Positions 1-5,685 of a stretch of 5,685 nucleotides of DNA are shown here, one piece after another. Below the pieces are notes generated by a model that did no database searches, was not told the origin of the DNA, and saw nothing but the letters and a program-made list of their open reading frames with translations. The DNA is taken from positions 1-5,685 of the IMG/VR virus record IMGVR_UViG_3300045988_003990. One strand, written 5' to 3'. A program made the translations under genes and the position numbers. The DNA is from a virus. Position 1 is the stretch's first letter. Every line of letters begins with the position of its first letter.

Positions 1-55
1 AAAAAGACCAAAACTATCAACCTTAGCCAGAAGCCTATGCGCGGTGGCATCCGGC
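1..55. repeat. Left copy of a 55-nt exact direct terminal repeat (identical to 5631..5685). This is the overlap signature of a circular genome with a 5630-nt unit length.
   Basis: Base-by-base comparison: aaaaagaccaaaactatcaaccttagccagaagcctatgcgcggtggcatccggc occurs at both ends of the window. An ORF reads continuously across the junction. Confidence 0.95.
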
Positions 56-60
56 TGTAA
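1..60 (+). CDS. 3' end of the small basic DNA-binding/packaging protein (gokushovirus ORF8 / phiX J-like). It is the wrap-around continuation of the CDS starting at 5568, with stop TAA at 58..60.
   Basis: Frame 1 reads KKTKTINLSQKPMRGGIRL*. Joined to 5568.. it gives the 40-aa protein MARHRKAMNGAKDRRMFNVTAKKTKTINLSQKPMRGGIRL. It is very basic, and from memory the C-terminal MRGGIR(L/F) is characteristic of the small ORF8 proteins of Chlamydia/Bdellovibrio-type microviruses. Confidence 0.75.
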   Translation, partial: KKTKTINLSQKPMRGGIRL

Positions 61-77
61 AAGAAAGGGAAACAACA

Positions 78-317
78 ATGAAACACAACTATTACGGCAT
101 CTGGGATGATGTGGCAAAATGCTATGCATGGGTAGGCGAAAGCAAAAACGACGCAACGTTTGCACGGATGTGCAACGTGATGGCAAAGGATGAAAAGACG
201 TTCATCGGGCAGAGCCCGCAGGACTACACCGGCTTTAAGCTGGCGGTGTTCGAAGACGAACTTGGCACGTTCACAAACGACAAAGAGAAGGTATGGGAGG
301 GCAAACCGCATGAATAA
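78..317 (+). CDS. VP5: Small non-structural protein, VP5-like (79 aa).
   Basis: ATG at 78 is preceded by AAGGGA (65..70) at 7-nt spacing. The position between ORF8 and VP3 matches the gokushovirus VP5 slot. The pattern Y.I.D..A..Y....KNDA.A.R......D......P.DY....L..F.D..G.F resembles my recollection of conserved VP5 proteins (PEDY..L..IG.FDD.TG). Not checked by search. Confidence 0.65.
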   Translation: MKHNYYGIWDDVAKCYAWVGESKNDATFARMCNVMAKDEKTFIGQSPQDYTGFKLAVFEDELGTFTNDKEKVWEGKPHE

Positions 318-747
318 ACGATATGAAGAAGGGCGAAAGCCCTTCTTTTCAGCATCGGGCGAAAAAATGCGAAAACAATACGTCTGGACAAAAGACGAGA
401 AAGGGCAGGAAGTGCTGCAAGAAACAGCACCAATCGACATCCAGCAAGAAATTGAATCGTACTCGGACGAATGCGATATCAAAAACATCGTCAGAAAAGC
501 AAGTTTTGACCCGCAGTTCCTTAAAAGCTTATCCGAAGGGACCATGACGGGGACAGAAATAGACATCACCGAATTTCCTCAAAACATTCACGAGTATCAC
601 CGCATGATTGCGACCGCACAGGCAAACGCAATGAAGCTGGAAGAACTACAGAAAATGGCAGAGGAACAAGCAAAAATGGAAGCGGAAAAAGCAAAAACTG
701 TAGCAAAACCTGAAGCAAAACCTGAAGCAAAGGAGGCAGAAAAGTGA
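310..747 (+). CDS. VP3: Internal scaffolding protein VP3 (145 aa).
   Basis: ATG at 310 has GGAGG at 296..300 (9-nt spacing) and overlaps the VP5 stop by 8 nt (ATGAATAA). The motif SYSDECDIKNIV resembles the conserved S(F/Y)k.ECDIN.I motif of gokushovirus scaffolding proteins. It has an acidic, helical, low-complexity C-terminus. The stop TGA overlaps the VP1 GTG start. I rejected the longer track ORF starting at 190 because it overlaps VP5 by 128 nt and has no SD. Confidence 0.8.
   Translation: MNKRYEEGRKPFFSASGEKMRKQYVWTKDEKGQEVLQETAPIDIQQEIESYSDECDIKNIVRKASFDPQFLKSLSEGTMTGTEIDITEFPQNIHEYHRMIATAQANAMKLEELQKMAEEQAKMEAEKAKTVAKPEAKPEAKEAEK
325..349 (+). other. GC-rich hairpin with a GAAA tetraloop followed by TTTT. 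It looks like an intrinsic terminator or attenuator and lies inside codons 6-13 of VP3.
   Basis: gaagggc (328..334) pairs with gcccttc (339..345) around loop gaaa (335..338). The stem extends through a326/a327 paired with t347/t346, and TTTT lies at 346..349. The architecture matches the 2422..2449 terminator. Confidence 0.4.
703..731 (+). repeat. 12-nt tandem repeat (gcaaaacctgaa, about 2.4 copies) encoding the (AKPE)n tail of VP3.
   Basis: gcaaaacctgaa occurs at 703..714 and 715..726, followed by gcaaa. The translation is AKPEAKPEAK, immediately before the AGGAGG SD of VP1. Confidence 0.85.
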
Positions 748-2411
748 ATCGAAACAATGAACGGCACTTTAACCAAATCCCAGAAATGAAAGCAAGTCGA
801 ACACGATTCAACCGCGACCAGACGATTTTAACAACGTTTGATTCCGGCAAACTGATTCCATTTTACGTGGACGAAGTATTGCCCGGCGATACCTTCAGCG
901 TGGACACGTCAGCGATTGTTCGAATGACCACACCGAAGTATCCGGTGATGGACGATGCATTCATTGACTTCTACTATTTCTATTGTCCTAACCGGATTCT
1001 GTGGGACAACTTCAAATATTTCATGGGAGAAATCGAAAGCACGGCATGGATGCCAACAAAAAATTACGAAGTACCCCAAATCGTCATAGACGCAAAAGAC
1101 GCACCATACGAAAAAAGCATACTAGACTACATGGGAGTGCCGACAAAAATTAAAAACAATTTCAGAGTAAACGCACTTCCCGTCAGAGCATACGTAAGAA
1201 TTTGGAATGAATTTTTTAGGGATGAAAACGTAGGCAATGCAGCAGTAGAATACAAAGACGATGACAACAGGTCCTACGGAGACACAAACGATGAAAACAA
1301 TCTAGAAAAAATCCTTCAAGAAGCAGCAAGGGGCGGCCGATGCTTACCAGTAAACAAATTCCACGACTACTTCACAAGCTGTTTGCCATATCCGCAACGC
1401 GGACCGGAAATTACGTTGCCAATGCAGGGCAATGCAATGATAAACGGATTCAAAGATCAAAAACTTAAGGAAAAAACAACTCTGTATGCAAACAGCTTTT
1501 TTGACGGAAGCACAACCGCAGGCAACGTCAAAGACAAACTGTATGCAATCTCAACATACGGAGGCGAAGGACAAGCATACGTAAACATCGGAACAGGAAC
1601 AGGAGAAACCCATGACGTAGTGTACCTGGGCGCAAACCTCAACAGCGTAACAGCAGCAACCATCAACGACTTACGAAAAGCGGTAACAGTGCAGCAGTAC
1701 TATGAAGCACTTGCAAGAGGCGGTAGCAGATACCGCGAACAGGTACAGGCACTGTGGGATGTCACAATCAGCGATAAAACTGTACAGATTCCGGAATACC
1801 TTGGCGGTGGCAGATACCATGTAAACATCAATCAGATTGTACAGACAAGCGGACAGCAGGCCAACGCTGACACGCCTATCGGTGAAACTGGTGCAATGTC
1901 AGTAACACCCATCAACGAAAGCAGTTTCACGAAATCCTTCGAGGAACATGGGTTTGTAATCGGAGTCTGTTGTGTGCGACACAATCACAGTTACCAGCAG
2001 GGGCTTGAACGATTCTGGAGCAGAAAAGACAGGCTAGACTACTATGTACCACAGTTCGCCAATTTGGGCGAACAGCCTGTCAAAAAGAAAGAAATCATGC
2101 TGACCGGCACAGCAAGCGATGAGGAAACATTCGGTTATCAGGAAGCATGGGCAGACTACAGAATGAAGCCTAACCGGGTATCCGGCCTCATGAGAAGCAA
2201 CGCAACGGGAACGCTGGACTTCTGGCATTATGCAGACAACTATTCAACACCTCCAACGCTGTCGCAGGAGTGGATGGCAGAAGGAAAAGCCGAAATCGCA
2301 CGAACACTAATCGTAGAGAATGAACCGCAGTTTTTCGGAGCGATTAGAGTAGCAAACAAAACCACAAGACGGATGCCGTTGTACAGCGTACCGGGCTTGT
2401 ACAAACTGTAA
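744..2411 (+). CDS. VP1: Major capsid protein VP1 (phiX F-like jelly-roll, 555 aa), with a GTG start.
   Basis: GTG at 744 is 7 nt downstream of a perfect AGGAGG (731..736) and overlaps the VP3 stop (GTGA). The N-terminal region ..SRTRFNRDQTILTTFDSGKLIPFYVDEVLPGDTF.. and the later DLR.A...Q.YYEALARGGSRY.E segment are hallmark conserved blocks of Microviridae VP1/F proteins. A long variable insertion (roughly aa 170-300) fits the gokushovirus 'mushroom' loop. Confidence 0.95.
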   Translation: MNRNNERHFNQIPEMKASRTRFNRDQTILTTFDSGKLIPFYVDEVLPGDTFSVDTSAIVRMTTPKYPVMDDAFIDFYYFYCPNRILWDNFKYFMGEIESTAWMPTKNYEVPQIVIDAKDAPYEKSILDYMGVPTKIKNNFRVNALPVRAYVRIWNEFFRDENVGNAAVEYKDDDNRSYGDTNDENNLEKILQEAARGGRCLPVNKFHDYFTSCLPYPQRGPEITLPMQGNAMINGFKDQKLKEKTTLYANSFFDGSTTAGNVKDKLYAISTYGGEGQAYVNIGTGTGETHDVVYLGANLNSVTAATINDLRKAVTVQQYYEALARGGSRYREQVQALWDVTISDKTVQIPEYLGGGRYHVNINQIVQTSGQQANADTPIGETGAMSVTPINESSFTKSFEEHGFVIGVCCVRHNHSYQQGLERFWSRKDRLDYYVPQFANLGEQPVKKKEIMLTGTASDEETFGYQEAWADYRMKPNRVSGLMRSNATGTLDFWHYADNYSTPPTLSQEWMAEGKAEIARTLIVENEPQFFGAIRVANKTTRRMPLYSVPGLYKL

Positions 2412-2421
2412 GAAAGGAGGA

Positions 2422-2449
2422 AGCCCGGAGAAATCCGGGCTATTTTTTA
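2422..2449 (+). terminator. Rho-independent terminator after VP1.
   Basis: An 8-bp perfect stem, agcccgga (2422..2429) paired with tccgggct (2434..2441), closes a GAAA tetraloop and is followed by aTTTTTTaa (2442..2450). It sits 11 nt after the VP1 stop. Confidence 0.8.
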
Positions 2450-2450
2450 A

Positions 2451-3314
2451 ATGGCAGGTTTATCAACACTCTTAACAGGGCTAAACATCGCCGGTTCAAT
2501 CGCGAGCACAGTAGGACAATTTGCAAACGCCGGCAAGCAAATCGCCGGAGCATTCGGCGGATGGGGTCAGACAGGCAACAGCCAAAGCCAGGGCGGAAGC
2601 ATAAGCCAGGGCGGCGGACACTCCAGCAGCGGAAGTCAAGCGGGGACAAACATACAACAGGTAAATGACTGGCTTAAACAGGCATATGCATACCAAGGAC
2701 AAGAAGCTGCAATGCAAGGTAAATACAACAGTCAAAGTATGCTTAAACAGATGGGATACAATACCTTGTCAGCAATCATGCAAGGCGTATATAACCACAT
2801 CGAGAACTCTGTAGCAATGAACTACAACAGCGCAGAAGCAGCCGCAAACCGTGAATGGCAAGAGCACATGTCAAGCACAGCATACCAGAGAGCCGTTGAA
2901 GATATGAAAAAAGCAGGGCTTAACCCAATCTTAGCTTTTGCAAACGGTGGAGCAAGCACACCGGGCGGAAGTGCAGGAACAATCAGCGGTGCAAGTATGG
3001 GACTAGCAAGCAGCAGCGCGCTAGGAGTAAGCCGGAGCGGTGGATTTGTACCAAACGCATACTCAAGTTCAAGCTGGAGTCAAAGTGACTGGTACAATGC
3101 TGCACAAAGCTGGCAACAGATGCTCAGTACAACACACATGACGCCATACGGACTACAAAAGGCGCTTACAGAAGTCGGAAACGACACAAGCAAGGCCATT
3201 ACGGATGCAACAACAAAGACAAGAAAAGGCACAGAACAGAACAGAAGCATGAAACCACAAGACAAAACAGGGTCCTACGGAGAAAAGAGAAAGCCGGGTG
3301 ATTATTTAAGATGA
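2451..3314 (+). CDS. VP2: Minor capsid / DNA pilot protein VP2 (287 aa).
   Basis: It sits directly after VP1. The N-terminal half is rich in Gly/Ser/Gln. The block NREWQEHMSSTAYQRAVEDMKKAGLNPILAF matches the conserved gokushovirus VP2 motif (..MS.TA.QR...D...AGLNP.LA.). The in-frame codon just before the ATG is TAA, so 2451 is the first possible start. Confidence 0.9.
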   Translation: MAGLSTLLTGLNIAGSIASTVGQFANAGKQIAGAFGGWGQTGNSQSQGGSISQGGGHSSSGSQAGTNIQQVNDWLKQAYAYQGQEAAMQGKYNSQSMLKQMGYNTLSAIMQGVYNHIENSVAMNYNSAEAAANREWQEHMSSTAYQRAVEDMKKAGLNPILAFANGGASTPGGSAGTISGASMGLASSSALGVSRSGGFVPNAYSSSSWSQSDWYNAAQSWQQMLSTTHMTPYGLQKALTEVGNDTSKAITDATTKTRKGTEQNRSMKPQDKTGSYGEKRKPGDYLR

Positions 3315-4330
3315 GTTGTTACAAGCCATTAATAAGGCTGTACAACCCAAAAAATAAAGACATAAGCGGGCGGGTGTATTCACTTGCCCGCTTTTCTAAA
3401 ATAAGCGGGAAACAGCTCAAATATGAAGATCTAATGTACAGAAAAGATGTAATGTTGATACCATGCGGACAGTGCATCGGATGCAGAATCAGACAAAGGG
3501 AAGACTGGACAACACGAATAGAATTAGAAGCACGAGATTATCCAAGAGAAGAAGTTTGGTTTATCACACTTACTTATGATGATGAACACGTACCGGGTAT
3601 GATAGTAAACACAGGCGAAATCATACGAAAAGTGCAGTACGTCTGGAAGCCGGGAAAGAAGCGCCCTGAAAGCGTCCAAACGTTACTGTATACTGACGTT
3701 CAAAAGTTCTTAAAACGCCTTAGAAAGGCTTATAAGGGCAAATTACGCTATTTCATAGCAGGAGAGTACGGAGAACAGACAGCAAGGCCGCATTATCATA
3801 TGATACTGTATGGATGGCAACCGACAGACCTAGAGCACCTATACAAGATACGGCACAACGGATATTTCACGAGTAAATGGCTAACGGACCTATGGGGCAT
3901 GGGTCAAATACAGATAGCGCAAGCAGTGCCAGAAACATATAGATATGTTGCAGGATACGTCACAAAAAAAATGTATGAGATAGACGGTCAAAAAGCAAAC
4001 GCATACTACGAACTAGGGCAACAAAAGCCATTCGCATGTATGAGCCTTAAACCGGGTCTGGGAGATCACTACTATCAAGAACACAAAGCAGAAATCTGGA
4101 GACAAGGATACATCCAATGCACAAACGGCAAACGCGCACAAATTCCACGCTATTATGAAAAAATGATGGAAGCTGAAAACCCACAAAGATTGTGGAGAAT
4201 TAAACAGAACAGACAAGCAACAACCATAGCGGAGAACCGGCTTAAATACGAAAATGCAGACTTTGCAGAACAGTGTAAAACGAAAGAGAGAGTGATAAAG
4301 AAGCAGATGAAGAAAAAAGGGACACTTTAA
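3311..4330 (+). CDS. VP4: Replication initiation protein VP4 (HUH rolling-circle endonuclease, phiX A-like, 339 aa).
   Basis: The ATG overlaps the VP2 stop (ATGA). It carries a Cys cluster PCGQCIGCR, RCR motif 1 FITLTYD, the HUH motif PHYHMILYG, and the double-tyrosine catalytic motif YRYVAGYVTKK (phiX A protein has YVAKYVNKK). Confidence 0.95.
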   Translation: MSCYKPLIRLYNPKNKDISGRVYSLARFSKISGKQLKYEDLMYRKDVMLIPCGQCIGCRIRQREDWTTRIELEARDYPREEVWFITLTYDDEHVPGMIVNTGEIIRKVQYVWKPGKKRPESVQTLLYTDVQKFLKRLRKAYKGKLRYFIAGEYGEQTARPHYHMILYGWQPTDLEHLYKIRHNGYFTSKWLTDLWGMGQIQIAQAVPETYRYVAGYVTKKMYEIDGQKANAYYELGQQKPFACMSLKPGLGDHYYQEHKAEIWRQGYIQCTNGKRAQIPRYYEKMMEAENPQRLWRIKQNRQATTIAENRLKYENADFAEQCKTKERVIKKQMKKKGTL

Positions 4331-4348
4331 CAGTGTCATGGTGTCACC

Positions 4349-4382
4349 TAGCCCAGTACCTATCAAGTAAGGTCCTGGGCTA
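4349..4382 (+). other. Imperfect stem-loop downstream of VP4, with no T-tract.
   Basis: tagcccag (4349..4356) pairs with ctgggcta (4375..4382). An inner stem pairs acct (4358..4361) with aggt (4370..4373) across a t/c mismatch, leaving the 8-nt loop atcaagta. A smaller hairpin, gacact/agtgtc (4321..4337), spans the VP4 stop. Confidence 0.6.
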
Positions 4383-4437
4383 TTGTCATCTAAATGGACC
4401 ATGTATCAGACTATTCAGTCTATAAAATAATCTTATT

Positions 4438-4497
4438 CACACGTGCGCACACGCGCGATAGCGCGCACGCGCGCACGCGCGATATAATATTAACTTG
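4438..4497. repeat. Extremely GC-rich alternating purine/pyrimidine block that ends abruptly in an AT-rich TATAATATTAACTTG motif. It is a candidate replication-origin element.
   Basis: There are two alternating Py/Pu runs of 20-21 nt (4438..4457 cacacgtgcgcacacgcgcg; 4461..4481 gcgcgcacgcgcgcacgcgcg). acgcgcgata repeats at 4451..4460 and 4475..4484, and gcgcacgcgcg repeats at 4463 and 4471. The inverted repeat cgtgcgc (4442..4448) can pair with gcgcacg (4463..4469 or 4471..4477). TAATATTAAC follows at 4485..4494 and AACTTG at 4492..4497. Confidence 0.7.
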
Positions 4498-4519
4498 TTG
4501 TAGACGTAGTAGTAGGCAA

Positions 4520-4694
4520 TGTGGAAAAGTTGAAAAGCACTAAAATTTAACGTTAAAACGTAAATAAAAAACAAAAAACAATGTTGAAAGTTTTGTTGAA
4601 AAAATGTTGAATTGTTGAAAGTTCGTCAAAATAACGAAAATCATTGTGCAACATTTTGTTGAAAACCTGTTGAAAGTGTTGAAAGTGTTGAAAA
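4520..4694 (+). repeat. Iteron-like array of direct TGTTGAAA repeats in three clusters, including a perfect 9-nt tandem triplet.
   Basis: Perfect TGTTGAAA starts at 4582, 4594, 4613, 4657, 4668, 4677 and 4686. One-mismatch copies start at 4520 (TGTGGAAA), 4528 (AGTTGAAA) and 4605 (TGTTGAAT). All copies share one orientation, and the spacings within clusters are 8-12 nt. The triplet is tgttgaaag/tgttgaaag/tgttgaaaa at 4668..4694. An A-rich stretch (4541..4581) separates the upstream pair (4520, 4528) from the first main cluster. Confidence 0.9.
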
Positions 4695-4753
4695 CGCGCA
4701 CAGCGCTTACAAGGAATGGATTATCCGAGCTCCGCATACGCTACGCACGGAAA

Positions 4754-4767
4754 GGCGCTAAAGCGCC
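4754..4767. promoter_or_regulatory. Inverted repeat GGCGC-N4-GCGCC about 20 nt upstream of the -35 element. It could be an operator or a small hairpin.
   Basis: ggcgc (4754..4758), taaa, gcgcc (4763..4767). No T-tract follows it. Confidence 0.35.
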
Positions 4768-4785
4768 ATTCAAACCAAAAAACAA

Positions 4786-4814
4786 TTGACAGACGACAAA
4801 ATATATGATAAAAT
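4786..4814 (+). promoter_or_regulatory. Near-consensus sigma70/sigmaA promoter: TTGACA, 17-nt spacer, TGnTAAAAT (extended -10).
   Basis: TTGACA lies at 4786..4791 and TAAAAT at 4809..4814 with an exact 17-nt spacer. TG lies at 4806..4807 (extended -10). An A-rich UP-like tract lies upstream (4771..4785). It sits at the end of the only long non-coding region and points into the gene string. The predicted transcription start is around 4821. Confidence 0.75.
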
Positions 4815-4839
4815 CCACAATAGAAAGCGAGGGAACAGC

Positions 4840-5229
4840 ATGATTAAAAGTTATATCGTGGACCAAAACGCAAACGAAAAAGTAGGAAAGCACTTTAAAG
4901 TAAAAGAATTTGCGTGCAAAGACGGATCTCAAGCAGTATTTATAGACGAACACCTCGCATCAATCTTAGACATTCTCCGAAACAAAATCGGAAAACCTGT
5001 CATCATCACCAGCGGATACAGAACGCCAGAGTGGAACAAAAGATGTGGAGGAGCAAAGTACAGTTACCATATACGCGGTATGGCTGCAGACATTCGAGTA
5101 AATGGAATGAGCGCAAAAGAAATCGCCAACGAACTGAATGCAATCGTTCCGAATGAATGCGGCATTATCGTATATAAAAGTTGGGTACATTTCGATGTAA
5201 GGACCAGCAAATACAGAAAGGGGGTATAA
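4840..5229 (+). CDS. Zinc metallopeptidase of the M15 family (M15A / Peptidase_M15_3-like cell-wall hydrolase, 129 aa). It is a putative endolysin.
   Basis: ATG at 4840 lies downstream of GAGGG (4829..4833). The motifs are SGYRTPEWN, then SYH-x6-D (H77 at 5068..5070, D84) in HIRGMAADI, then WVHFD (H117). This is the H..D...H zinc-ligand arrangement of the LAS/M15 peptidoglycan peptidases. There is no N-terminal signal peptide or transmembrane (TM) segment. I rejected the track start at 4786 (TTG) because it is the -35 hexamer. Confidence 0.85.
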   Translation: MIKSYIVDQNANEKVGKHFKVKEFACKDGSQAVFIDEHLASILDILRNKIGKPVIITSGYRTPEWNKRCGGAKYSYHIRGMAADIRVNGMSAKEIANELNAIVPNECGIIVYKSWVHFDVRTSKYRKGV

Positions 5230-5230
5230 G

Positions 5231-5353
5231 ATGGCTCTGATTTCCATTAAGGACGTCAAGCAGGCAATCCGCATTATGATGCAGATTCTGGAAAAGCTCG
5301 ACGAAATCTATCACGCGCTGCATGATAGCATCAACGAAAAAGAAAAGGAGTAA
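5231..5353 (+). CDS. Hypothetical small protein (40 aa), absent from the ORF track: MALISIKDVKQAIRIMMQILEKLDEIYHALHDSINEKEKE.
   Basis: The ATG lies 1 nt after the peptidase stop, with AAAGGGG (5218..5224) 6 nt upstream. The stop is at 5351..5353. Its own 3' end carries the AAGGAG SD of the next ORF, so the genes are tightly packed. It looks like a single amphipathic helix with an acidic tail and no TM segment. Confidence 0.6.
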   Translation: MALISIKDVKQAIRIMMQILEKLDEIYHALHDSINEKEKE

Positions 5354-5356
5354 ACC

Positions 5357-5584
5357 ATGGTACACAAAACATGGAACATACGAGACCAGACCACAAAAGA
5401 ACTAGAAATTCTACTCGAACGAAAATACAAAGAAATTGATAGCAATTACAAAATGTTTAAAAAAGCGTCAAGTATCGAAGATGCTAAAAGAATAGTAAAC
5501 GAAACTCGGCAAATAAAAAACTTTGCAAACGACATCGAATTAGAGCTAATGCGAAGGGAGTACAACAATGGCACGACATCGTAA
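5357..5584 (+). CDS. Hypothetical protein (75 aa), highly charged and apparently all-helical or coiled-coil.
   Basis: ATG at 5357 is preceded by AAGGAG (5345..5350) at 6-nt spacing. Its 3' end overlaps the ORF8-like start by 17 nt and contains that gene's SD. I recognise no family motif. Confidence 0.65.
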   Translation: MVHKTWNIRDQTTKELEILLERKYKEIDSNYKMFKKASSIEDAKRIVNETRQIKNFANDIELELMRREYNNGTTS

Positions 5585-5685
5585 GGCAATGAACGGCGCA
5601 AAAGACCGCCGAATGTTTAACGTAACCGCAAAAAAGACCAAAACTATCAACCTTAGCCAGAAGCCTATGCGCGGTGGCATCCGGC
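5568..5685 (+). CDS. 5' part of the small basic DNA-binding/packaging protein (ORF8/J-like). It continues across the circular junction to the stop at 58..60.
   Basis: ATG at 5568 is preceded by AAGGGAG (5554..5560) at 7-nt spacing. It is open to the window end and in phase with 1..60 once the 55-nt overlap is collapsed. The protein is 40 aa and rich in Arg/Lys. Confidence 0.75.
   Translation, partial: MARHRKAMNGAKDRRMFNVTAKKTKTINLSQKPMRGGIR
5631..5685. repeat. Right copy of the 55-nt terminal direct repeat (identical to 1..55).
   Basis: Exact identity to 1..55. Confidence 0.95.

Follow-up and report, generated by a model that had tools for sequence, protein, structure and literature searches.

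To our knowledge, gokushoviruses have no established mechanism of lysis, and how these small viruses open the walls of their hosts is the question raised by the locus described here. In the microvirus phiX174 the task falls to E, a small membrane protein encoded by an overprinted gene, an amurin that inhibits MraY and blocks wall synthesis and that has no wall-degrading activity. A protein of another kind is encoded in the IMG/VR virus record IMGVR_UViG_3300045988_003990, positions 1 to 5,685 of which were analyzed (hereafter the window, i.e., the whole stretch of 5,685 nt): the open reading frame (ORF) located at 4840-5229 on the + strand codes for a peptidase of the M15 type, predicted to cleave peptidoglycan. 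A first-pass annotation had singled out this ORF and asked how a cytoplasmic enzyme would gain access to the wall. The puzzle is a genuine one, for the genome contains no holin-like, signal or E-like element. The analysis presented here gives the peptidase somewhat better than an even chance of being an accessory endolysin that relies on a membrane lesion provided by another viral or host factor.

At the level of sequence and predicted fold, the identification of the product of 4840-5229 (129 aa, ATG start, 14.6 kDa, isoelectric point 9.5) as an intact, single-domain peptidoglycan peptidase of the LAS/M15A type (Peptidase_M15_3) is secure. The profile search that the first-pass annotation had proposed as a check returned a full-length match to Pfam PF08291 Peptidase_M15_3 of clan Peptidase_MD (model positions 1-108 of 108, 86.2 bits vs. 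a cut-off of 23.2, E=2e-24), together with a second Pfam match to PF05951 (28.1 bits vs. a cut-off of 27) and a match to PHROG 894, “endolysin” (E=4e-41). The SGYR / H-x6-D / VH.D signature of M15A enzymes, read earlier from the letters of this complete small gene, is indeed present and consists of S58-G-Y-R61 (5011-5022), H77-x6-D84 (5068-5091), which holds the presumed zinc ligands 1 and 2, and V116-H117-F-D119 (5185-5196), in which H117 is the presumed third ligand and D119 a conserved acidic residue. In alignments of 10 and 60 homologues with identities down to 40%, residues S58, R61, H77, D84, H117, and D119 are invariant, and G59 and Y60 are nearly so. From these residues we infer a zinc-dependent enzymatic activity. 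MepK, a peptidoglycan L,D-endopeptidase (NCBIfam NF053624), was rejected as an identification with 41 bits vs. a cut-off of 185; because of this score, the JGI label “YcbK (DUF882 family)” attached to database copies of the protein reflects a likeness at the level of the domain only.

Structure prediction leads to the same class. Prediction from the single sequence was poor (predicted local distance difference test, pLDDT, 58.7) and was replaced by an AlphaFold2 model built from the 60-sequence alignment, which reached a pLDDT of 97.3 and a predicted template modeling score (pTM) of 0.90. When this model was compared with the PDB using Foldseek, all high-probability matches were of the LAS/DD-peptidase/hedgehog type with template modeling scores (TM-scores) of about 0.5, namely 1lbu, VanXYc (4mut), VanY, hedgehog N-domains, Ply500, LysB4, LdcB, LysECD7, ChiX, and EndoT5. 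The modeled LAS fold thus bears out the structural expectation of the first-pass annotation, the endolysins Ply500, LysB4, LysECD7, and EndoT5 being among the matches. The two best fold matches are 1lbu, the zinc D-Ala-D-Ala carboxypeptidase of Streptomyces albus G and MEROPS type enzyme of M15A, and VanXYc; 1lbu is also the sole structure matched by a PDB sequence search (E=0.009), and its corresponding stretch aligns with H77-x6-D84. Together with VanX, VanY, LdcB, Ply500, and EndoT5, 1lbu shares with the peptidase the fold class and the H-x6-D...H zinc site. However, identities of 15-22% and TM-scores of about 0.5 place the peptidase too far from 1lbu and from the Van and LAS enzymes for the bond that it would cleave (D-Ala-D-Ala, L-Ala-D-Glu or an L,D cross-link) to be named. 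Against predicted viral structures, TM-scores rose to 0.92-0.96 for “Peptidase” proteins of gut tailed phages, and the peptidases of several marine microviruses matched less well.

In this subclade of gut gokushoviruses, the gene has become fixed. Among the 80 IMG/VR genomes nearest by the major capsid protein VP1 (73-84% identity), 71 carry a full-length copy, the other nine being mostly contigs whose end cuts the gene or falls at its expected position. The location of the gene is constant, with the non-coding region that follows the replication initiator gene VP4 on one side and the small genes that precede VP5 on the other. The protein is 65-81% identical to its GenBank copies, and the pairwise ratio of nonsynonymous to synonymous substitution rates (dN/dS) is 0.14 among 89 microviral copies, similar to the 0.09 of VP5 and a mark of purifying selection. 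These figures bear on the idea that the peptidase is a mere passenger, recently acquired or decaying, with no role in the viral life cycle. Its accessory status, its horizontal origin and its absence from related genomes would suit such a gene, but its low dN/dS, the invariance of all its catalytic residues and its retention in full by most of the nearest genomes despite the tight size limit of a 5.6-kb genome speak to the contrary; the conservation data exclude decay, and the passenger explanation as a whole is considered very improbable.

The accessory status itself is informative. Eight gokushovirus genomes (L137-L144) that carry ORF8, VP5, and the equivalent of ORF40, a small gene found at 5231-5353 of the window, gave no peptidase match by tblastn at E<1. 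Since these relatives keep the core set of VP1, VP2, VP3, and VP5, the peptidase would act as an accessory enhancer of lysis, not as the sole lysis device of the clade. In the peptidase-less relatives (L137, 1460-1645; L139, 1573-1797), the slot held by the peptidase in the lineage of the window, flanked by the non-coding region and ORF40, contains a small Cys-rich ORF (...YKYKHCDRQCDKCPNKDISYYCSY...).

Neither the gene nor the proposal that it codes for an endolysin is new, both having been known since 2012. Peptidases of the M15_3 family were reported in five human-gut gokushoviruses and six alpaviruses, with an endolysin role proposed, and the gokushovirus peptidases were found to cluster with Faecalibacterium-type genes located beside holins (Roux et al., 2012; PMC3394797, PLoS One 7:e40418). 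Peptidases were later listed among the accessory lysis genes that recur in microviruses and that are exchanged between families (Kirchberger et al., 2022; PMC9239249), and M15 peptidases are also known from cultured microviruses of marine and soil origin. In GenBank, the annotation “peptidase M15” is found in Human gut gokushovirus SH-CHD5, SH-CHD13, and SH-CHD14 (KX513868, KX513876, and KX513877), and a protein identical to that of the window is already public (P0001, on 11 metagenome contigs of up to 6.1 kb). It is the family report of 2012, these annotations and the identical protein that deprive the gene of novelty. The peptidases of SH-CHD5/13/14 and of Roux et al. (2012) share with that of the window the virus group, the Pfam family, the position between VP4 and VP5, the affinity with Clostridia/Faecalibacterium and the proposed role; no difference of substance separates them, and the published descriptions consulted leave aside the lack of a holin and the conserved small neighboring genes. 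The earlier impression that M15-like ORFs occur only sporadically in microviruses does not survive these reports, nor the present searches, which yielded 244 confirmed IMG/VR stretches and 1389 protein matches in a large protein collection. The companion statement that such proteins were never characterized holds for the gokushovirus M15 clade within the literature found, but not for microviruses at large: Ebor Gp7, a microviral peptidoglycan hydrolase, was shown to be active on host peptidoglycan (mBio 2025; PMC11980548). Like the peptidase of the window, Gp7 is an accessory wall-degrading enzyme of a microvirus and resembles enzymes of tailed phages. Ebor, however, belongs to the “Tainavirinae” lineage and has an alphaproteobacterial host, and it encodes a predicted membrane protein of 45 aa, Gp1, that the genome of the window does not have. 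No paper was found in the literature on how a microviral peptidase without a holin reaches the wall.

The ancestry of the enzyme points to lysis cassettes. Its best non-microviral homologues are single-domain proteins of about 130 aa with 50-53% identity, encoded on tailed-phage contigs of 44-67 kb, directly after tail-fiber genes and beside genes for small proteins that have one to five transmembrane (TM) segments, which is the classical layout of a lysis cassette. These endolysins of phages of gut Clostridia (P0121 and P0146; A0A8S5PI31 and A0A858NMZ2 in BFVD) share with the microviral enzyme its length, its invariant residues and its predicted fold (TM-score up to 0.96), whereas the microviral copy has no small TM protein for a partner. 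In GTDB (185,579 species-representative genomes), 45 loci with 36-48% identity were found, nearly all in Clostridia (Lachnospiraceae, Oscillospiraceae, Faecalibacterium, Lacrimispora). Prophage copies in metagenome-assembled genomes (MAGs) of Oscillospiraceae and Dysosmobacter adjoin multi-TM holin-like ORFs, and chromosomal copies in Lachnospiraceae and in a Clostridia MAG are larger proteins with an N-terminal signal peptide. Given these holin-like neighbors or signal peptides, the M15 domain acts outside the membrane in every comparator examined. None of the 45 loci carries VP1, VP2, VP4, or ORF40; in the absence of these microviral genes, the loci represent homologues of cellular or tailed-phage origin, none of them an integrated microvirus. 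The nearest relatives of the peptidase suggest that an ancestor of the subclade captured it from a lysis cassette of tailed-phage type, most likely in a phage of Clostridia.

In the window, hydropathy reveals no holin. All + strand ORFs with a length of 20 aa or more were scanned, after circularization, for a 19-residue Kyte-Doolittle mean of at least 1.5; no ORF reached this value, the highest score being the 1.21 of the N-terminus of the pilot protein VP2. This Gly/Ala/Ser-rich stretch (2451-2534, +), with values of 1.05-1.82 in relatives, is the most hydrophobic + strand segment of the genome, and no viral protein other than VP2 has a membrane-seeking segment. The same scan was applied to 89 peptidase-bearing relatives (9 from GenBank and 80 from IMG/VR). 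In about 87 close relatives, the + strand segments at or above 1.5 were VP2 N-termini and three isolated ORFs, each confined to one genome; the remaining segments came from one T-rich distant genome and from one 10.9-kb contig. The endolysin homologue of a canonical holin-endolysin cassette is therefore at hand, with no TM holin or pinholin detected beside it by the hydropathy scan. Likewise, no overprinted small ORF with an N-terminal TM helix, the mark of a phiX174 E-type amurin, was found, and the sense +1 and +2 frames within the peptidase gene hold no hydrophobic ORF. Both E and the peptidase would serve the lysis step of a microvirus; unlike E, the peptidase is a soluble hydrolase, and no E-like hydrophobic overprinted ORF accompanies it here.

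The enzyme itself shows no means of export. Its N-terminus is hydrophilic, the maximal 10-residue Kyte-Doolittle mean within the first 35 residues being at most 0.95 in 90 of 90 microviral copies, vs. 2.8-3.2 in four cellular homologues with obvious signal peptides. No Sec signal peptide or signal-arrest-release (SAR) domain was detected on the protein, and an in-frame extension from TTG 4786 would add 18 residues, all within a hydrophilic stretch. Within the limits of a hydropathy scan, the initial observation that the window encodes no holin, signal peptide or phiX174-E-like ORF thus extends to the whole subclade. Hydrophobic ORFs do exist on the minus strand (Kyte-Doolittle means up to 2.6) and were rejected as genes: they result from the richness in A of the + strand, and the open stretches antisense to the peptidase vary in length from 32 to 131 codons among relatives, which shows that they are not conserved genes. 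In another group of peptidase-bearing gokushoviruses, the Dulem viruses 195, 178, and 203, a small ORF with a single, strong TM segment lies directly after VP2 (L008, 2593-2700; L198, 2621-2728; L199, 2577-2786); it measures 35 aa in L008 and L198, both of which end with W-L-K/N-R-H. This ORF is a candidate holin-like partner, absent in the lineage of the window, and its conservation as a single-TM protein of about 35 aa means that some peptidase-bearing lineages may possess such a partner.

Should no viral protein carry the enzyme across the membrane, the host might. Endolysin export that is independent of holins and of viral membrane partners occurs in Gram-positive systems (Ms6, fOg44, SV1); the LysA protein of mycobacteriophage Ms6 reportedly follows a chaperone-assisted Sec route, and the lysin of the pneumococcal phage SV1 is said to be carried with teichoic-acid precursors. 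By analogy, the peptidase could leave the cell by non-classical secretion, by chaperone-assisted Sec export or along with teichoic-acid precursors, and then wait in the wall, inactive, for the membrane potential to collapse. These precedents, the affinity of the homologues with Clostridia, which suits a Gram-positive host, and the absence of a viral membrane protein across the subclade, which calls for such a route, all favor the proposal. Nonetheless, the protein is a catalytic domain and nothing else, with no signal peptide, SAR domain or wall-binding module, and host-assisted export is regarded as unlikely, if the least so among the alternatives to the accessory endolysin.

The nearest candidate for a viral partner is the gene that directly follows the peptidase. 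The 40-aa ORF mentioned by the first-pass annotation, although missing from the list of ORFs on which that annotation drew, does exist (ORF40, 5231-5353, +) and is a real, conserved protein-coding gene. It codes for an amphipathic helical protein of 34-40 aa with the invariant core ILEKLDEIYHAL, is found in 89 of 90 peptidase-bearing genomes with a dN/dS of 0.12, and is often 90-100% identical in protein where the peptidase is 73-88% identical. ORF40 forms a tiny orphan family limited to the gokushovirus group: of 1.84 billion representatives searched, no more than 19 clusters (50% identity) belong to it. Neither it nor the next gene, ORF75 (5357-5584, +), matches any Pfam, PHROG or NCBIfam entry. 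ORF75 codes for a very hydrophilic, basic protein of 75 aa (grand average of hydropathy, GRAVY, -1.06) present in 66 of 90 genomes with a dN/dS of 0.18, and is shortened to 23-34 aa in a few of them. In the peptidase-less relatives, an ORF weakly similar to ORF75 lies upstream, not downstream, of ORF40.

On this basis, one may picture a two-component, holin-independent lysis system, a new cassette of single-stranded DNA (ssDNA) phages, in which ORF40, perhaps with ORF75, permeabilizes or depolarizes the membrane and frees the peptidase. Besides its conservation and its restriction to the virus group, ORF40 starts only 2-6 nt past the peptidase stop codon in the window and in most relatives, and it is strongly amphipathic, with a hydrophobic moment (muH) of up to 0.70 and a mean hydrophobicity near 0. 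However, it is equally conserved in the eight gokushoviruses devoid of the peptidase, so that it belongs to the virus group and not to the enzyme, and ORF8 separates the two genes in one sublineage. Its role as a peptidase-specific partner was rejected for the former reason. The properties of the protein are no better suited to the membrane: its isoelectric point is acidic (5.6), it has neither a cationic face nor an aromatic anchor, and its hydrophobic residues at positions 6, 9, 13, 16, 20, 23, 27, and 30 follow the strict 3-4 spacing of the a/d heptad pattern of soluble coiled coils. Its best 19-residue mean of 0.95, far below membrane-spanning values, agrees with the earlier statement that no nearby + strand ORF, the 40-aa ORF included, encodes a TM segment. 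As for ORF75, its hydrophilicity and its loss or shortening in some genomes count against a part in lysis. Its presence in peptidase-less relatives, its acidity and its heptad pattern make ORF40 a weak substitute for a holin, and the suggestion that the 40-aa peptide disrupts membranes finds little comfort in these data; the two-component system is deemed rather improbable.

A broader variant would have a soluble endolysin let through the membrane by a viral protein that is not a holin, either VP2, serving late in infection as a conduit, or ORF40, which could in addition serve the peptidase-less relatives as their general effector of lysis. A late role of VP2 in lysis is speculation, and the variant taken as a whole is held to be unlikely. 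If true, it would represent a new type of lysis system of ssDNA phages and a first handle on the lysis of gokushoviruses.

The enzyme might also act on the way in. A few copies packaged in or attached to the virion could locally open the peptidoglycan for delivery of the DNA by the tailless capsid and its VP2 conduit, a help most relevant for a thick wall of the Gram-positive type. The nearest cellular homologues, almost all from Clostridia, hint that the host is monoderm. Some virion-associated lysins of tailed phages contain M15A domains, Ebor Gp7 was found in virions in trace amounts, and an enzyme acting from the outside requires no holin. Opposed to these points are the lack of any structural or capsid-binding module beside the catalytic domain; the closest sequence homologues, which are single-domain enzymes in lysis-cassette positions beside holin-like proteins; the T=1 gokushovirus capsid, which offers little spare room; and the merely trace level of the virion signal of Gp7. 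Entry is, moreover, not generally dependent on the peptidase, since the peptidase-less relatives retain VP1, VP2, VP3, and VP5. Taken together, a role in entry appears improbable.

This brings the argument back to the accessory endolysin. According to this reading, the gene would be transcribed from the promoter-like site located just upstream and translated from the ribosome-binding motif GAGGGA, and the basic enzyme would build up in the cytoplasm, where it would be harmless. Once the membrane is breached, the enzyme would cut the peptide stems or the cross-links of the wall and thereby speed up or complete lysis and the release of virions. The lesion would come from another viral factor or from the host, as the genome offers no dedicated holin, signal peptide, SAR domain or phiX174-E-like protein. 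Several points weigh against this scenario. A cytoplasmic enzyme that does not cross the membrane cannot lyse a cell alone, and the mechanism misses a step. The absence of TM segments and signal peptides is based on hydropathy thresholds and not on dedicated predictors. M15A domains are also found in tail-associated entry lysins (Gp5-type OB-fold fusions and “cell wall hydrolase” proteins of 1000 aa), for which reason the fold and the family cannot separate a role in exit from a role in entry. Finally, the search for a host came back empty: no prophage of the gokushovirus clade was found in the 185,579 species-representative genomes, and nearly every relative detected by VP1 lies on a contig no longer than 6.1 kb.

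Three VP1 contigs are longer (8.3, 10.6, and 11.6 kb) and are possibly concatemers. One further contig joins bacterial and viral DNA (L090, ENA ERZ1742712 NODE_713, 29.2 kb): at 9880-10419, the sequence switches from bacterium to microvirus inside a truncated gene of the alpha-amylase family (GlgB-like), between ...KWNMGWMN and PKKQ.... The bacterial part codes for Spore_permease, GerAC (spore germination), glutamate racemase and trigger factor, and the contig, covered 5.8x, ends 26 nt past a peptidase that is 80% identical to that of the window. It was set aside as evidence of a host, i.e., of integration in a spore-forming Firmicute, an assembly chimera being more likely at this coverage.

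The placement of the gene is compatible with the accessory endolysin. The best sigma-70-like match of the window lies directly upstream (4786-4814, +; TTGACA-17-TAAAAT with TG before the -10 element, 11 of 12 matches) and ends 25 nt 5′ of the peptidase ATG; the sequence of this site suggests that it would function as a promoter, in which case the peptidase is, as was first proposed, the first gene past the main promoter. Promoter-like matches in the window as a whole are at chance level (9 seen vs. 8.2 expected). In 37 of 90 relatives, the strict motif stands no more than 150 nt upstream of the peptidase, the commonest spacing being the identical 25 nt. A Shine-Dalgarno-like GAGGGA (4829-4834, +) precedes the start codon by 5 nt, and comparable purine-rich motifs accompany six of the eight genes of the window. 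First place in an operon had been called odd for a lysis enzyme. In holin-endolysin systems, however, the endolysin is harmless in the cytoplasm and it is the membrane lesion that sets the timing; we know of no early/late switch in microviruses. As the lesion and not expression decides when lysis occurs, there is nothing odd in the first position. Directly 3′ of VP1, an intrinsic-terminator-like hairpin (2422-2441; 8 pairs, 6 of which are G-C, followed by a T-run) would, with the promoter-like site at 4786-4814, bound a transcript running from the peptidase through VP1.

The window is a complete gut gokushovirus genome. An exact direct repeat of 55 nt (1-55 and 5631-5685), 55 being a common k-mer size of assemblers, identifies it as a circular contig with a true genome length of 5630 nt, and its DNA is 84% identical to that of Human gut gokushovirus SH-CHD5 (KX513868) across 94% of its length. 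It has the features of the Gokushovirinae, i.e., a circular genome of about 5-6 kb that codes on one strand for VP1, VP2, VP3, VP4, VP5, and a small basic ORF8-like protein, with all recognizable genes on the + strand. These genes are, in order, a VP5-like gene (78-317; Pfam Phage_ORF5, E=5.5e-10; PHROG 1670), the internal scaffold gene VP3 (Pfam Chlamy_scaf), which probably spans 310-747 with a start at M41 of ORF 190-747, the match to PHROG 24309 beginning at residue 41, the major capsid gene VP1 (744-2411; Pfam Phage_F, E=8e-134), the pilot protein gene VP2 (2451-3314; PHROG 8742, “pilot protein for DNA ejection,” E=5e-126) and the replication initiator gene VP4 (3311-4330; Pfam REP_ORF2-G2P; PHROG 942, E=6e-109). 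After a non-coding stretch of 510 nt come the peptidase, ORF40, ORF75, and the ORF8-like gene, which codes for a basic protein of 40 aa (MARHRK...RGGIRL) and runs from 5568 to 5685 and on over the circular junction to position 60 of the window. The ORF8-like gene was found in 90 of 90 genomes, and its equivalent in the Dulem viruses is annotated as “DNA binding protein.”

The non-coding region between VP4 and the peptidase is rich in repeats. The heptamer GTTGAAA occurs eight times, exactly and on the + strand, within 165 nt (4529-4693), vs. 1.1 expected, and none of 200 shuffles reached eight; the repeats stand partly in tandem 9-nt units (TGTTGAAAG) and may serve as iterons bound by a protein or as promoter elements. 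In relatives, a “hypothetical protein” is annotated across this stretch (the ...VENLLKVLKVLK... ORF, here 4646-4789), which is probably nothing but the GTTGAAA repeats translated as codons. Right after VP4 lies a 13-nt inverted repeat (4349-4382; 92% complementary, with an 8-nt loop), followed by a G+C-rich block with direct and inverted repeats of the CGCGCAC type (4437-4484); both are candidates for an origin or packaging signal. No RNA family was matched by an Rfam search of the window.

What the locus of this record adds to a gene known since 2012 lies in its context. About 90 genomes devoid of the usual holin or export signal sharpen an export question that has been implicit since the first report of the family and that is not specific to the window. 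Nearly all public annotations of the gokushovirus genomes of the subclade omit ORF40 and ORF75, ORF40 having no annotated gene in nearly all of the 31 GenBank matches listed. The peptidase itself would represent a compact candidate lysin of 129 aa, probably aimed at walls of the Clostridia type, to judge from its relatives. Gokushoviruses rank with the most abundant gut phages of mammals, and this peptidase is their only recognizable lysis-related gene.

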